Shown here in pieces: positions 25,424 through 37,410 of a DNA stretch of 38,154 nt. Where the stretch lies: positions 1 through 38,154 of IMG/VR virus record IMGVR_UViG_3300045988_064121. The stretch is one strand, 5' to 3'. Positions within the stretch are counted from its first letter, which is position 1; every line of letters starts with the position of its first letter. The notes beneath the pieces were generated by a model. That model was given only the letters and a program-made list of their open reading frames with translations, had not been told where the DNA came from and searched no databases. Source of the DNA: a virus. The position numbers and the translations under genes were made by a program.

Positions 25424-25499
25424 TCGAAACTAGCCAATAGGCTAGTCTGCTAGAGATGACCTACTAGCACTGATGATGACAGGTCATGGAGGTGAAACA

Positions 25500-25628
25500 A
25501 TACTAGACAAGAGAATTTTTGAAGCCTTAAGCGAATTACAAAAGAAAGGCTACGAGCTTTCAGAATTTTATCAAGGGTATATCGCTTGTATCTTAGATGA
25601 ATCGAAAAGAGGTGAGAAGCATGACTAG
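25500..25628 (+). CDS. Small hypothetical protein; possible ATA start (alternative ATG 25473 without SD)
   Basis: GGAGG at 25488-25492, then ATA 7 nt later at 25500. Confidence 0.3.
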   Translation: MLDKRIFEALSELQKKGYELSEFYQGYIACILDESKRGEKHD

Positions 25629-25800
25629 AACATATTTCGTAACCTTCGACGTAACTGCAAATGTTACGTTCGAAGTTGAAGCACATGACGAATTAGAAGC
25701 GCAGGAAATCGCAAATCAATTAAACGTAAGAGATTTACAAGAGGTAAATGAAATTAACACTTGTGAATCAAGAATGGAGGTGTATGCAAGTGATTATTGA
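25621..25800 (+). CDS. Hypothetical protein
   Basis: AGAGGTGAG SD then ATG 25621. Confidence 0.45.
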   Translation: MTRTYFVTFDVTANVTFEVEAHDELEAQEIANQLNVRDLQEVNEINTCESRMEVYASDY

Positions 25801-26041
25801 GTATAAAGCACTTCTAAATAAAGACGATATAATCGCTCTTTATGACTTAGATAGATACAAGCCACAAACGAAAAAAAACTACTGCTACAGTATTATGAAG
25901 GCAGTAAAAGAAGCTTACAAAAAAGAAACAGGAACTGAATGGGAAGATTCGTTTACACAAAGAAATATTCATCAGAAGGTGATTCCTACAGAAACATTCT
26001 TGAAGTGTGCTCCTGAGTTCAAAAAAAGCTTTAGGAGATAA
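25784..26041 (+). CDS. Hypothetical protein (start ATG 25784 or GTG 25790)
   Basis: GGAGG at 25776-25780. Confidence 0.4.
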   Translation: MQVIIEYKALLNKDDIIALYDLDRYKPQTKKNYCYSIMKAVKEAYKKETGTEWEDSFTQRNIHQKVIPTETFLKCAPEFKKSFRR

Positions 26042-26044
26042 AAA

Positions 26045-26275
26045 ATGGAAGATATAAGAATGAACAGTATTCAAGATGAAGAAATGGAATTGAACATTTA
26101 TCCATTTAATCCAAAACGAATACATTTAAGCAAGGAAGAAAAAGAGATACGCAGAGAAATGACGTATCAAAAAAGAATCACAACTTGTGTGAATATTCTG
26201 TTATTCGCAACAATTATGATTCTATTAATGACTATTTCATGTTTTGGTAAAGCGTATGCAATGTTATTTCAATAA
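26045..26275 (+). CDS. Small protein with a C-terminal TM segment
   Basis: AGGAG SD. ILLFATIMILLMTISCFG. Confidence 0.45.
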   Translation: MEDIRMNSIQDEEMELNIYPFNPKRIHLSKEEKEIRREMTYQKRITTCVNILLFATIMILLMTISCFGKAYAMLFQ

Positions 26276-26374
26276 AAAAAGAGGTGCGCACCCGACAAAA
26301 AGTACGCACACAAGAAATGACGTTCTTAATATAAGAACACATACATTATAGCAGATTAAAAGGAGAAACGGAAG

Positions 26375-27040
26375 ATGGAAGAAAAGAAAATGAATGTATA
26401 TGAAAAGCTATCTCATATACAAAACGAAATGAAAGTGGGGAAGAATCAATATAACAAGTTTGGTAAATATAGTTATAGGTCGGCAGAGGATATCTTAGCA
26501 GAAGCAAAAAAGATTTGTGTTAAGTATAGAGCAACTTTGATTCTTACAGATGAAATTGAAGTCATTAAAGATAGATATTATGTTGTTGCAAATGCAATCT
26601 TAAACGATTGGGATTCAAATGAATCAATTGAAGTTAAGGCAATGGCTAGAGAAGAAGAAAATAAAAAAGGAATGGACGCTTCACAAGTTACAGGTTCATG
26701 CAGTTCATACGCTAGAAAATATGCGTTAAATGGTTTATTTAACTTGGATGATACAAAAGACGCAGATACAGACGAGCAACATGAAGTCATTCAAAATGCA
26801 CAAACAAAGCAACAAAAATCAGAAAATAATAGCAAGTTAGATGAAATTCGTATGAGGTGCTTTAAAGCACAGAATGAATTACAGAAGCTAGGAATTGATA
26901 CACATTCAGAAGCGTTTTGTGAGCATTTAAAAGCCGAATATAAAATCAGTTCACAAGATATTCCTAATCTAAATGGAAACGGTCTAGTGGGATTAATTAA
27001 GGCGTACGGAGCTATTTACAAAGAAAATGCGAAAGCATAA
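26375..27040 (+). CDS. erf: ERF-family single-strand annealing recombinase
   Basis: VYEKLSHIQNEMKVGKNQYNKFGKYSYRSAEDIL...GSCSSYARKYALNGLFNLDD is the ERF signature. Confidence 0.75.
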   Translation: MEEKKMNVYEKLSHIQNEMKVGKNQYNKFGKYSYRSAEDILAEAKKICVKYRATLILTDEIEVIKDRYYVVANAILNDWDSNESIEVKAMAREEENKKGMDASQVTGSCSSYARKYALNGLFNLDDTKDADTDEQHEVIQNAQTKQQKSENNSKLDEIRMRCFKAQNELQKLGIDTHSEAFCEHLKAEYKISSQDIPNLNGNGLVGLIKAYGAIYKENAKA

Positions 27041-34966: not shown

Positions 34967-34986
34967 GTTTAAAAGGAGGGAAAATA

Positions 34987-35568
34987 ATGAATATTGTTGA
35001 AAAAAGATTAAATGAGCTAAAGCCTTATGAGAATAACCCTAGAATCAATGATGGAGCAGTGAAATTTGTTAAAAACTCTATTGAGGAATTCGGTTTCAAA
35101 GTCCCTATTGTTATTGATAAAGATGGAGTGATTGTTGCAGGTCATACACGATATAAAGCTAGTCAAGAATTAGGCTTAGAAACTGTTCCTTGCGTGGTTG
35201 CAGATGATTTAACAGATGAGCAAGTAAAAGCATTTAGAATTGCAGATAATAAAACGGCAGAAAAAGCTTCGTGGGATTTAGACGCATTAAAAACAGAAAT
35301 GGAAGAGCTAGAAGAAATTGACGGAATCGACATGAGAGATTTCGGATTCGGTGATTTTGAGATTAGCGCATTAACTGAGGACATGGAAGTAGAAGGATAT
35401 GACAACGAGCTTATTGACGCATTTAGCGAACATTCAGAAGAAATGCTAAAAAAGCAACGTGTAATCATTACATATGAAACAGAGGAAGAACAACTATTCT
35501 TAGAGAAACTTTTACAGGTAACTGAATTAAAAGTATGCTACGACATCAAGGAATTAATGCATGAATAA
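34987..35568 (+). CDS. ParB-like nuclease domain (ParB/Srx fold) protein
   Basis: LKPYENNPRINDGAVKFVKNSIEEFGFKVPIVIDKDGVIVAGHTRYKA. Confidence 0.7.
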   Translation: MNIVEKRLNELKPYENNPRINDGAVKFVKNSIEEFGFKVPIVIDKDGVIVAGHTRYKASQELGLETVPCVVADDLTDEQVKAFRIADNKTAEKASWDLDALKTEMEELEEIDGIDMRDFGFGDFEISALTEDMEVEGYDNELIDAFSEHSEEMLKKQRVIITYETEEEQLFLEKLLQVTELKVCYDIKELMHE

Positions 35569-35617
35569 CATCTATTGTGCAATAGCTTAATTATTAAAAG
35601 AAAATGGAGGATATAAG

Positions 35618-36925
35618 GTGAATAAAATTAGTGAGACTTATCAATCACCAAGATGGACAGGAGAAATCGCAGATTGCTCATTACCAGTAACATTTGATAC
35701 ATATTCCAACTGTTCATTTGGATGTGTTTATTGTTTTAGCCAATATCAAAGAGGCATTGGTGCAAGTAAAGAAGCATATCTTAATAAAGATGTGAAATGT
35801 ATCAATGTTGAGAAATGCAAAAAGATTTTCAGTGGAGAAGATACAAAATCACAATTCTATAAATACATTAAAGACAGACGCCCTATTCAATATGGTGGAT
35901 TATCAGACCAATTCGACGGATATGAAAAGAAATATGGTAAAACCTATGAAATGCTCAAGTATATGAAATCTATTAACTATCCTATCTGTTTTAGTACGAA
36001 ATCGGCATGGGTATTTAACGACCCTAAATATCAAGAATTATTCAAAGGTGCAGACAATTGGAATGTTAAGTTTAGTATTATCACACTAGATGAAGAGGAC
36101 GCAAGAAAAATCGAAGTAGGTGTACCAAGTCCAAGAAAAAGACTTGAAGCAATGAAAAAATATACTGAATTATCAAAAGGTGGTGCAACTTTAAGGTTGC
36201 GACCATTTATTGTAGGAGTATCAGATAAAACCTATCTAGATTTAATTAGAGAAGCCAAAAAGGCAGGAGCTACTGCGGTTACTACAGAGTTCTTTTGCTT
36301 AGAAATGCGCTCTATTAAACAAGCTAAGGAGCATTATGATGTGATTAGTGAATGTGCAGGATTTGATATTGTAGATTTCTATAGAAAACATTCAAATGGA
36401 AGTGGATATTTAAGACTTAACAGAAAAGTAAAGGCTAAATACATTCAAAAGATGAAAGAGCTATGTGATGAATTAGGTATGCGGTTCTATGTATCAGACG
36501 CACACTTTAAAGAATGTTCAAACAACTGTTGTTGTTGCGCATTAGACAAGAATTGGGATTACTCAAGAGGAAATTTTAGTGGAGCTTTACAAATTGCAAA
36601 GAAACATGGAAGAGTACATTGGAAAGATATTGAAAAGGATATGTATTTCTTAGACTTCGAGCGCAATAAAGCGATTGGCTTTAATACAAATACATCAGAA
36701 ACTAGAGCAAAATATGCAGGAATGACAATGAAAGATTATTTGCATTATTTATGGAATTCACCAAAAGCAGGACAATCGCCTTATAAGATTTTTGAAAAAG
36801 TCTTAAAGCCTGTAGGATTTGATGAAAACAATGACATCATTTACGAATATGATAATTCAGTAACATTCTTAAAAAGAACAGAGGAGATTACAGAACTTGA
36901 AACAGAAGAAGCAAGACATGTCTAG
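35618..36925 (+). CDS. Radical SAM protein (SplB/COG1533-like)
   Basis: CX3CX2C motif NCSFGCVYCF near the N-terminus. Additional cluster ECSNNCCCCALD. GGAGG then GTG 7 nt later at 35618. Confidence 0.6.
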   Translation: MNKISETYQSPRWTGEIADCSLPVTFDTYSNCSFGCVYCFSQYQRGIGASKEAYLNKDVKCINVEKCKKIFSGEDTKSQFYKYIKDRRPIQYGGLSDQFDGYEKKYGKTYEMLKYMKSINYPICFSTKSAWVFNDPKYQELFKGADNWNVKFSIITLDEEDARKIEVGVPSPRKRLEAMKKYTELSKGGATLRLRPFIVGVSDKTYLDLIREAKKAGATAVTTEFFCLEMRSIKQAKEHYDVISECAGFDIVDFYRKHSNGSGYLRLNRKVKAKYIQKMKELCDELGMRFYVSDAHFKECSNNCCCCALDKNWDYSRGNFSGALQIAKKHGRVHWKDIEKDMYFLDFERNKAIGFNTNTSETRAKYAGMTMKDYLHYLWNSPKAGQSPYKIFEKVLKPVGFDENNDIIYEYDNSVTFLKRTEEITELETEEARHV

Positions 36926-37067
36926 AGAAGAACATTTACGCCAAATGAAAAGCGTTGAAGAAGAATTAGAAAACACGACATCAGAATACAGAAAAAGAGA
37001 TTTAAGAAAAAGATTACAAAGGCTTAAAAAGCAGTTGAATCAATATGATTGTTATAGGGGGTATTAA
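36918..37067 (+). CDS. Small basic coiled-coil ORF (49 aa)
   Basis: ATG overlaps the upstream stop. It ends 1 nt before the proposed terS ATA start. Confidence 0.3.
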   Translation: MSREEHLRQMKSVEEELENTTSEYRKRDLRKRLQRLKKQLNQYDCYRGY

Positions 37068-37068
37068 A

Positions 37069-37410
37069 ATAGCAGAGAAACACGCAGGAGGACGTCCAAG
37101 AGTAAATATTGATTATGAAGCAGTTGAAAAGCTTGCTTCTATTGGATGTACTCAAGAAGAAATTGCAGATTTTCTAGGATGTTCAGTAAGAACATTATTA
37201 AGAAATCAAAAGTTTTGTCAGACATATAAAAGAGGTATAAGCCACTCAAAAAGAAGTTTAAGACGTATGCAATTTGACAAAGCTTCAAAAGGGAATACGA
37301 CCATGCTTATTTGGTTAGGTAAACAAATGCTTGGACAGTCTGAAAAGGTTGAACAAACAATGACACATGAGATTGAGGACTTAACACCTTTGGCAGATTT
37401 ATTAAAATGA
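37069..37410 (+). CDS. terS: Terminase small subunit; proposed ATA start (alternative ATG 37045 without SD)
   Basis: GGGGG at 37057-37061, then ATA 7 nt later at 37069 (aaATAGCAG context). AEKHAGGRPRVNIDYEAVEKLASIGCTQEEIADFLGCSVRTL is a TerS HTH. Confidence 0.7.
   Translation: MAEKHAGGRPRVNIDYEAVEKLASIGCTQEEIADFLGCSVRTLLRNQKFCQTYKRGISHSKRSLRRMQFDKASKGNTTMLIWLGKQMLGQSEKVEQTMTHEIEDLTPLADLLK

Follow-up and report, generated by a model that had tools for sequence, protein, structure and literature searches.

Candidate AUA translation starts and an initiator-like UAU tRNA in a temperate phage of Holdemanella biformis

The phage genome and its candidate ATA starts

The IMG/VR virus record IMGVR_UViG_3300045988_064121, analyzed here over its whole length of 38,154 nt (the window), represents an entire phage genome in circularly permuted form, with a GC content of about 33% and nearly all of its genes on the + strand, in which a number of genes appear to start at ATA and a single tRNA gene, with the anticodon UAU, lies at the boundary of the early and late regions. 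An exact 55-nt direct repeat at positions 1-55 and 38100-38154 represents the overlap of a circular assembly, making the true length 38,099 nt, and terL runs from an ATG at 37407 across the junction to position 645. Integrated copies, located by an exact look-up of the integrase sequence, adjoin the host genes nanE-tldD-pmbA-sseB. Because two of the four flanking host proteins, NanE and TldD, bear the name Holdemanella biformis in NCBI/UniRef, the phage is assigned as a temperate siphovirus of this human-gut species of the Erysipelotrichaceae. When 13 kb of the sequence was compared by megablast with 50,697 phage records, no similar cultured phage was retrieved, and no close prophage was found in the GTDB representative genomes, where the best match has 57% capsid identity. 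In IMG/VR, the phage belongs to a clade of about 40 contigs with capsid identities of 92-99%, and a further 45 contigs are distant relatives with identities of 47-56%.

Ten late genes, from portal through endolysin (649 to 19266), can start at ATA alone, with functions assigned from PHROG and Pfam matches and all of them on the + strand. The portal protein gene (649..2052) opens with ATA after AAGGAGGT, has an in-frame stop 2 codons upstream, and offers its first canonical start codon 31 codons downstream. The stop codon of the portal gene overlaps the ATA of the following head protein gene (2049..2858) as ATAG, and PHROG profiles align to the head protein from residues 2-7. A structural protein gene (3462..4070) starts at an ATA; of 19 distinct contexts in relatives, 5 have ATG at this codon. 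In the major capsid protein (7630..8499), residues 3-288 correspond to positions 3-294 of the 297 positions of phrog_422. These are followed by a minor head protein (9428..9787), whose ATA lies in an ATAG overlap, and by a structural protein matching phrog_3099 (10206..10712), whose ATA lies in a TAATA overlap and is ATG in one relative contig. The tape measure gene (11674..14253) has its first canonical codon 140 codons downstream of the ATA, and the gene for the distal tail protein Dit (14250..15122) again begins within an ATAG overlap. The endolysin gene (19266..20720) starts at ATA after AAGGAGG, with its N-terminal domain aligning from residue 5 and the first ATG lying 29 codons downstream. 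In-frame stops lie 1-2 codons before the ATA in the portal, capsid, 10206 and tape measure genes, while terL and the scaffold gene start at ATG.

The remaining late gene, a holin (PF05105, 16150..16656), has two in-frame ATA codons, at 16150 and 16180, each preceded by its own Shine-Dalgarno (SD) sequence; an ATA at 16180 had been pointed out before. The two lie 10 codons apart, and some relatives have ATG at the first or at the second; the pair looks like the classical holin/antiholin dual-start motif written in ATA.

The capsid gene provides a direct comparison with relatives that use a canonical start. Its start is ATA in all 35 clade loci (IPNQIALAK...), and at exactly the aligned codon the start is ATG in all 57 full-length distant relatives (MPNxIALAK or MANxIALAK), as it is in 13 prophages in GTDB genomes. 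Within the clade, genomes that are 87-95% identical show ATA/ATG polymorphism at 3462, 10206, 16150, and 16180.

The original prediction had called for a test of whether ATA is enriched downstream of SD sites. A simple tally of all codons lying 5-11 nt downstream of any SD of 5 nt suffers from internal SD-like sites, and it was replaced by tests restricted to gene starts, with a strong SD site defined as 6 nt or more of AAAGGAGGTGAT on the + strand and an ATA-only site as one with ATA 6-11 nt after the SD. The + strand contains 56 strong SD sites, with ATG, GTG, or TTG next in 24 and ATA alone in 10. Each of these 10 begins a long open reading frame (ORF) and is preceded in frame by a stop at a distance of 0-28 codons. 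Among the other non-canonical codons, none follows a strong SD more than 3 times, and ATT never does, even though the sequence contains more ATT than ATA. An energy-based SD test gave a similar picture for the late region, with 15 ATG, 11 ATA, and no more than 5 of any other codon. Genome-wide, ATA is the sole non-canonical codon enriched after strong SD sites; its counts in the early and packaging region are taken up below.

The spacing of genes follows the same pattern. Genes started at ATA follow closely on one another, the intervals being -4 to +20 nt except for +51 nt before the endolysin gene, and without the ATA starts the gaps between genes would reach 440 nt. The start-stop overlaps ATAA, ATAG, and TAATA parallel the familiar ATGA and TAATG.

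Six further ATA starts had been predicted among the early and packaging genes, and the coordinates of all six, along with those of their SD sequences, match the window. Four of them, at terS, a RusA-like resolvase, a replisome organiser, and a zinc-binding protein, are well supported by comparison with homologues outside the clade, since the first methionine (Met1) of those homologues aligns on the ATA codon. This comparison covered the capsid, terS, zinc-binding protein, RusA, and organiser; the remaining two sites, at 25500 and 33975, are without available homologues, and ATA starts there are plausible. An SD lies approximately 5-11 nt before the ATA, with no better-placed canonical codon, at all late sites and at 25500, 28418, 29153, and 37069; by the same measure, the sites at 27356 and 33975 are weaker or ambiguous.

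The terS gene (37069..37410, + strand, PHROG terminase small subunit) would begin at ATA 37069, 7 nt after the SD AGGGGG at 37056-61, and the ORF upstream of it reaches its stop at 37065-67. The homologues outside the clade (one, P0049, with 71% identity and others with 51-57%) have their methionine on the ATA column and start with MSEKHAGGRP, METKNPVGRP, and similar sequences. None of them contains the MIVIGGIK extension that would be expected from the upstream ATG at 37045. This ATG has no SD, as had been pointed out together with the GGGGG at 37057-61, and is out of frame in one relative through a 1-nt insertion. Synonymous and non-synonymous differences in the 24 nt from ATG 37045 to ATA 37069 are too sparse for comparison.

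The RusA-like resolvase gene (28418..28786, + strand) has ATA 28418 after the SD AAGGTGG at 28405-11, and the PHROG RusA match covers residues 2-121. Its homologues, among them proteins from Lactobacillus phage c5 and from an Erysipelothrix genome, start with MKFxIxGRLDGLNEY and place their methionine on the ATA column; a family-typical N-terminus had been anticipated for this start. Reading back from the ATA, an in-frame stop is reached after 8-9 codons, and in 7 of 9 relative contexts no canonical start intervenes. The nearest canonical codon, TTG 28451, is 11 codons downstream and would lose 11 conserved residues; it is missing in two relative contexts, where the next canonical codon lies 28 codons downstream.

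For the replisome organiser, or replication initiator (29153..29893, + strand), the SD preceding ATA 29153 is GGGGGTGA at 29140-47, which is a perfect GGAGGTGA in relatives, and the in-frame GTG at 29144 sits inside it. When a query begun at TTG 29135 was compared with a library of 1.8 billion representative proteins, residue 2 of most of the 150 best hits aligned with query residue 8, the residue after the ATA, which places the Met1 of most of these hits on the ATA, in agreement with the predicted start.

The gene for the zinc-binding (CxxC) protein (27356..27646, + strand) begins at ATA 27356, which overlaps the preceding stop codon as ATAA, just as had been described. Positions 4-96 of the 96 in the phrog_7566 profile correspond to residues 4-96 of the protein, and at least 12 homologues start with MKRDKSI, with the methionine on the ATA column. 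A TTG at 27350, two codons upstream, is the alternative start. With these four genes, the claim that ATA starts are not limited to late genes holds on homology.

The two smaller ORFs have a less settled start. A 42-aa ORF (25500..25628, + strand) follows GGAGGTGA at 25488-95, the strongest SD of the six, and occupies an uncalled gap of approximately 200 nt in prophage annotations. The predicted GGAGG (25488-92) and ATA are present, and a start at ATA is probable. An in-frame ATG-ATG, itself without an SD, lies at 25473, and the coding evidence for the ORF is weak, with substitutions by codon position of 10/4/14 in a single divergent relative. A 64-aa coiled-coil ORF (33975..34169, + strand) likewise has the predicted ATA, 7 nt after the GGGGG of a GAGGGGG, and here ATG 33981, two codons downstream and 13 nt after the SD, is the alternative start. 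In relatives, indels of 1-2 nt between the SD and the ATA leave the ATA spacing at 7-8 nt, and starts further upstream are excluded because of these indels. The ATG is always present in the relatives, 13-14 nt from the SD core.

The UAU tRNA and its match to the start sites

The tRNA gene (34519..34594, + strand) is called as tRNA-Ile(UAU) by ARAGORN, scores 49.1 bits against Rfam RF00005, and is the single tRNA of the window. In the Rfam alignment, 1:72 is the one non-pair. Like the bacterial initiator tRNA-fMet of E. coli (metZWV/metY), the phage tRNA has a 1:72 non-pair, G2-C71, C3-G70, A11-U24, G30-C40, A73-CCA, and the same D arm and variable loop (AGGUC). It differs from the E. coli tRNA in having the anticodon UAU instead of CAU, A1xA72 instead of C1xA72, U37 instead of A37, A-U instead of the G-C of metZ at 4:69, one or two of the three G-C pairs of the anticodon stem with U-G as the third, a bulged T stem, G55, and a D loop of 7 nt. 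Across 5,426 E. coli genomes, the tRNA matches a median of 4 places per genome, with 77.9% identity over 75 nt. The match that was inspected belongs to a tandem array of three tRNA-Met genes situated between mltA and amiC, and we take these genes to be the metZWV initiator genes. Annotated matches in phage databases are all tRNA-Met.

Because of A1xA72, G2-C71, C3-G70, A11-U24, and G30-C40, and with metZWV of E. coli as its best match, the phage tRNA is best read as having an initiator-type body, derived from a bacterial tRNA-fMet and not from a normal tRNA-Ile. An elongator tRNA-Ile(UAU), such as that of the B. subtilis tilS-deletion suppressor (PMC3919564), also has a UAU anticodon that reads AUA, but it has a paired 1:72 and A37 and works in the A site, in contrast to the mismatched 1:72, U37, and initiator-type body seen here.

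Nine sequence variants occur in the clade, found by blastn and pattern scans, as ARAGORN misses most of them. A1xA72, G2-C71, C3-G70, A11-U24, G30-C40, U37, and the loop CUUAUUA are invariant, so that all variants have UAU in place of the CAU of tRNA-fMet, and the anticodon stem contains three doubly compensated pairs. For the three pairs 29:41, 30:40, and 31:39, variant A is GC/GC/UG, variant B is AU/GC/UG, and one variant is AU/GC/CG, with G30-C40 alone constant. This pair has been identified in E. coli as the essential member of the three, sufficient by itself for initiator function, and natural au/GC/gu initiators occur in mycoplasmas and alpha-proteobacteria (PMC5389676).

The tRNA and the ATA starts occur together. 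Two pattern scans found the tRNA in 35 IMG/VR contigs, all belonging to the ATA-using clade. It is present at 32 of 38 portal-anchored clade loci; the other six have less than 3.9 kb of upstream sequence, and three of these six contigs carry the tRNA elsewhere. Sites with a strong SD followed by ATA only, against those followed by a canonical codon, number 260 versus 213 in the clade loci, 3 versus 331 in the distant IMG/VR relatives, and 2 versus 92 in the GTDB relatives. A second phage group, equal in GC content and derived for the most part from the same metagenome, lacks such a tRNA and shows one ATA-only site per locus at most. This second group shares its portal type with one mosaic member of the clade.

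A second connection is found in the sequence context of the starts. The recurring aaATAGCAG that had been proposed is shared by terS and the organiser, as stated, and occurs at no other sites, so it is not a recurring motif. The real context of the ATA starts is A at -1 and G at +4. A occupies position -1 in all 17 ATA starts of the window versus 27 of 47 canonical starts (Fisher test, 6e-4), and across distinct clade contexts in 93 of 94 ATA starts versus 55 of 103 canonical ones. G occupies position +4 in 11 of 17 ATA starts versus 10 of 47 canonical starts in the window (Fisher test, 2e-3), and in 70 of 94 distinct clade ATA contexts versus approximately 21-39% of canonical starts. GCN is the second codon in 5 of 17 ATA starts and 2 of 47 canonical ones.

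In the mRNA, position -1 lies opposite position 37 of the tRNA, and the A at -1 is complementary to the invariant and rare U37 of the phage tRNA. In E. coli, complementarity between mRNA position -1 and position 37 of tRNA-fMet raises initiation in high-throughput measurements that included an A37U variant (PMC10018350). The A(-1)/U37 match would thus fit the pairing of initiator and mRNA as a quadruplet, and it is a link between the tRNA and the start sites that is independent of the other evidence. The G(+4) preference is not accounted for by this pairing.

The surroundings of the tRNA gene suggest that it may be its own transcription unit. Just before it lies a gene for a sigma-like regulator (34166-34492), with weak, sub-threshold NCBIfam sigma-factor matches, followed on the + strand by a stretch (34479..34512) containing a terminator-like hairpin with a T-run and then an extended -10-like box. 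This conserved box, TGTAATAAT (34504-34512; TGnNATAAT), ends 6 nt before the 5' end of the tRNA and varies in relatives only as TGCGATAAT. Transcription may start at or near the +1 of the tRNA from this putative promoter, leaving little or no leader for RNase P. A second terminator-like hairpin (34678-34696) with its T-run (34678..34704, + strand), conserved in relatives, lies downstream, so that the tRNA is flanked by two such hairpins. The approximately 80 nt 3' of the tRNA (34595-34700), ending in the hairpin, are highly conserved in the clade, and this stretch could be a small RNA or a late promoter or operator region.

Other loci with related tRNAs were also considered. In one group of distant relatives with ATG starts and 55% capsid identity (L046-L051, L073), a tRNA-Met(CAU) gene lies approximately 700 nt upstream of the capsid gene, which may be a precursor state of the UAU system. 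No canonical initiator with three G-C pairs and an [A/G/U]AU anticodon was found in the IMG/VR scan. Other UAU tRNAs (L003, L005-L008, L010) were rejected as counterparts, being long-arm or elongator-like, mostly located in multi-tRNA clusters, and without an ATA-start signal at their loci. Four of them (L005, L006, L008, L010) are tRNA-like UAU genes of 89-92 nt with a long extra arm, which is unusual for tRNA-Ile, and the L003 sequence is similar to these and is not called by ARAGORN.

Between the tRNA and terS, beside a ParB-like gene, 35618-36925 encodes a 435-aa radical-SAM-like protein. It belongs with the PA0069 / Rv2578c / "mobile pair protein B" radical SAM family, below the family cut-offs, and no PDB relative was found by sequence; the PA0069/Rv2578c family presumably resembles spore photoproduct lyase, SplB. 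The gene was considered as a modifier of the tRNA, and no link to the tRNA was found.

Proposed decoding of the ATA starts

Taken together, these observations make it probable, by our estimate from sequence comparisons, that AUA is a genuine start codon for 14-16 of the approximately 70 genes of this phage and that the phage tRNA, a descendant of tRNA-fMet in which UAU has replaced the CAU anticodon, is the decoder. The genes concerned would be the 10 late genes and at least four early or packaging genes (the zinc-binding protein, RusA, the organiser, and terS). Anticodon-mutant initiators take the amino acid of the new anticodon, and because of this the phage tRNA would probably be charged with isoleucine, possibly with methionine. 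It would then be formylated by way of the retained 1:72 mismatch, G2-C71, and C3-G70, and delivered by IF2 to the P site, aided by the retained G30-C40. There it would pair with an AUA, which is observed to lie 6-11 nt after the SD, and the observed complementarity of U37 and A(-1) would add a fourth base pair to a codon-anticodon helix made entirely of A and U. In B. subtilis, a UAU tRNA with an unmodified U34 binds AUA strongly and AUG weakly on the ribosome (PMC3919564). A possible purpose of the arrangement would be to make the translation of lytic functions dependent on a tRNA of the phage, and the tRNA may plausibly be required during the whole of the lytic cycle, as had been suggested. 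We also lean, with some reserve, toward the broader view of a natural orthogonal initiation system, in which AUA starts across the portal, capsid, tail, lysis, recombination, replication, and packaging genes and the co-evolved A(-1)/U37 match would form a translational gate on the lytic program that is insulated from the AUG starts of the host, with much of that program translated efficiently only in the presence of the phage initiator.

Several observations weigh against this reading. The tRNA does not retain the three consecutive G-C pairs (29:41, 30:40, 31:39) of initiators, and its third pair is Y:R, unlike the known natural exceptions. The T arm is odd, with its bulged stem and G55 in place of U55, to the extent that ARAGORN misses most variants. 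U37 precludes t6A, and the identity elements of IleRS and MetRS are each partly present. A mosaic phage (IMGVR_UViG_3300029219_000010; L030/L204) has a packaging and portal module with ATG starts from a different phage group and a head-tail module derived from the clade, in which ATA is kept at the capsid, minor head, 10206-like, and tape measure genes and the 3462 homologue starts at ATG; it thus keeps ATA late-gene starts, and the presence of the tRNA is not readable from its 16.5 kb stretch. Internal ATA codons make up 13-17% of the isoleucine codons of the phage versus 1 of 93 in four host genes, or 10-11 per 1000 codons versus 0.7 per 1000 in the four flanking Holdemanella genes (L143:693-4867), a very small host sample. 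An elongator role for the phage tRNA, as a codon supplement, is therefore conceivable.

The latter observation leads to the strongest of the alternatives, which is that the host tRNA-fMet reads ATA weakly through a C34-A mismatch and that the phage tRNA is an elongator tRNA-Ile(UAU) supplementing the decoding of AUA. We regard this as unlikely. AUA is a weak start codon in bacteria, which agrees with such a reading, as does the abundance of internal ATA codons in the phage against their scarcity in the four host genes. AUA has also been studied as a degenerate bacterial initiation triplet (PMC5499595), and tRNA-Ile with a UAU anticodon does decode AUA in B. subtilis (PMC3919564). However, the capsid protein is the most abundant product and starts at ATA, to which a start of approximately 1% efficiency would be unsuited. 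The phage tRNA has an invariant 1:72 mismatch, A11-U24, and no A37, and in the E. coli match inspected it resembles initiator genes, not a tRNA-Ile-like body; the 1:72 mismatch is an initiator hallmark that disfavors EF-Tu binding. Relatives without the tRNA have no ATA starts, and the A at -1 complements the U37 of the phage tRNA and would not match an initiator with A37. The original prediction had offered a related alternative, that the host initiator reads ATA at a low level to set stoichiometry. This idea is disfavored because ATA starts are absent from relatives lacking the tRNA and A(-1) matches U37; moreover, the abundant capsid protein and the low-copy portal protein both start at ATA, and terL and the scaffold gene both start at ATG. 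A dependence on the phage tRNA holds better than the stoichiometry alternative.

A more doubtful alternative confines ATA to the late genes and has the six early and packaging genes start at canonical codons, namely ATG 37045, TTG 27350, GTG 29144, ATG 33981, ATG 25473, and TTG 28451. At five of the six sites such an in-frame codon lies within 2-9 codons, and gene callers do use these codons, as in the clusters of 121-aa terS and 98-aa zinc-binding proteins. The enrichment of ATA after SD sites also fails in the early and packaging region taken alone (24.6-38.2 kb), where the energy-based SD test gave 4 ATA (25500, 28418, 29153, 37069) and 8 AAA, a result that is not above background and not significant and that counts against AUA starts in this region. 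Because of this, the early sites rest on per-gene evidence. That evidence stands against canonical starts at four of them, with Met1 of the homologues on the ATA for terS, the zinc-binding protein, RusA, and the organiser. Furthermore, ATG 37045 lacks an SD and is frameshifted in one relative, GTG 29144 falls inside an SD, and TTG 28451 drops conserved residues and is missing in two relative contexts. Canonical starts are viable for 33975 and 25500 only.

Finally, that the ATA starts are artefacts of sequencing or assembly errors, or of decaying pseudogenes in a defective prophage, has next to no probability: the window is a metagenome-style circular assembly, but the same ATA codons recur in independent Logan/ENA assemblies and in more than 35 IMG/VR contigs drawn from 6 or more samples, with intact ORFs, conserved SDs, and complete circular genomes, and no support for such an artefact was found.

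Comparison with known systems and meaning

The principle of an initiator that reads a codon other than AUG is known from engineering. The Schulman and RajBhandary labs reportedly worked with GAU, GAC, and GAA mutants of tRNA-fMet. Engineered orthogonal initiators include i-tRNA(AAC), as outlined in bioRxiv 10.1101/2021.05.25.445580. As in such anticodon-mutant initiators (amber mutants and i-tRNA(AAC)), the phage tRNA would use the scaffold of an initiator to start at the complementary non-AUG codon, placed after an ordinary SD, with the amino acid following the anticodon. Unlike them, as laboratory constructs used with one reporter, the phage system would be natural and conserved, would serve 14-16 genes, and has an A(-1)/U37 context that is apparently co-adapted.

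The closest natural analogue is the recoding by suppressor tRNAs in phages. CrAss-like and other gut phages carry suppressor tRNAs and recode stop codons in their late or lytic genes. In both cases a phage tRNA would give a new meaning to a codon found mainly in lytic or structural genes, so that translation of these genes would depend on it; the suppressor tRNAs act on stop codons during elongation, whereas the UAU tRNA would reassign an initiation codon and leave decoding in elongation unchanged. Elongators of the tRNA-Ile(UAU) type also occur in Mycoplasma mobile, Bifidobacterium, and Lactobacillus. In mitochondria, AUA is a regular start, and one tRNA-Met with a CAU anticodon (f5C34) serves both AUG and AUA in both initiation and elongation. 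The phage would likewise use AUA as a regular start, but with a separate, dedicated UAU initiator alongside that of the host. In the literature searched, we found engineered initiators and UAU elongators and no initiator tRNA of natural origin, bacterial or phage, that has an anticodon other than CAU.

One practical consequence concerns annotation, as standard gene callers truncate or miss genes started at ATA. In public calls (L143-L146), RusA has 111 aa where it is truncated and 125 aa where it is extended, the organiser is given 237 aa, terS is lengthened to 121 aa, and the zinc-binding protein is uncalled in L143-L145 or called from TTG. Such wrong calls sit in protein clusters (P0046/P0047, P0166, P0262, P0277) whose members number from hundreds to over 1,300 sequences.

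The system would also be of use for studying initiation itself. The A(-1)/U37 match would be a natural test of the quadruplet model of initiator-mRNA pairing, and the tRNA, with G30-C40 and the 1:72 mismatch kept and two of the three G-C pairs lost, would test which initiator features are required. As a compact, evolved, orthogonal pair of initiator and start codon from a phage of Firmicutes, it would be a ready-made part for orthogonal translation. If AUA is indeed decoded in this way, the tRNA would be the first natural dedicated non-AUG initiator found for bacteria or phages, and it would mean that viruses can privatise a start codon as well as stop codons.

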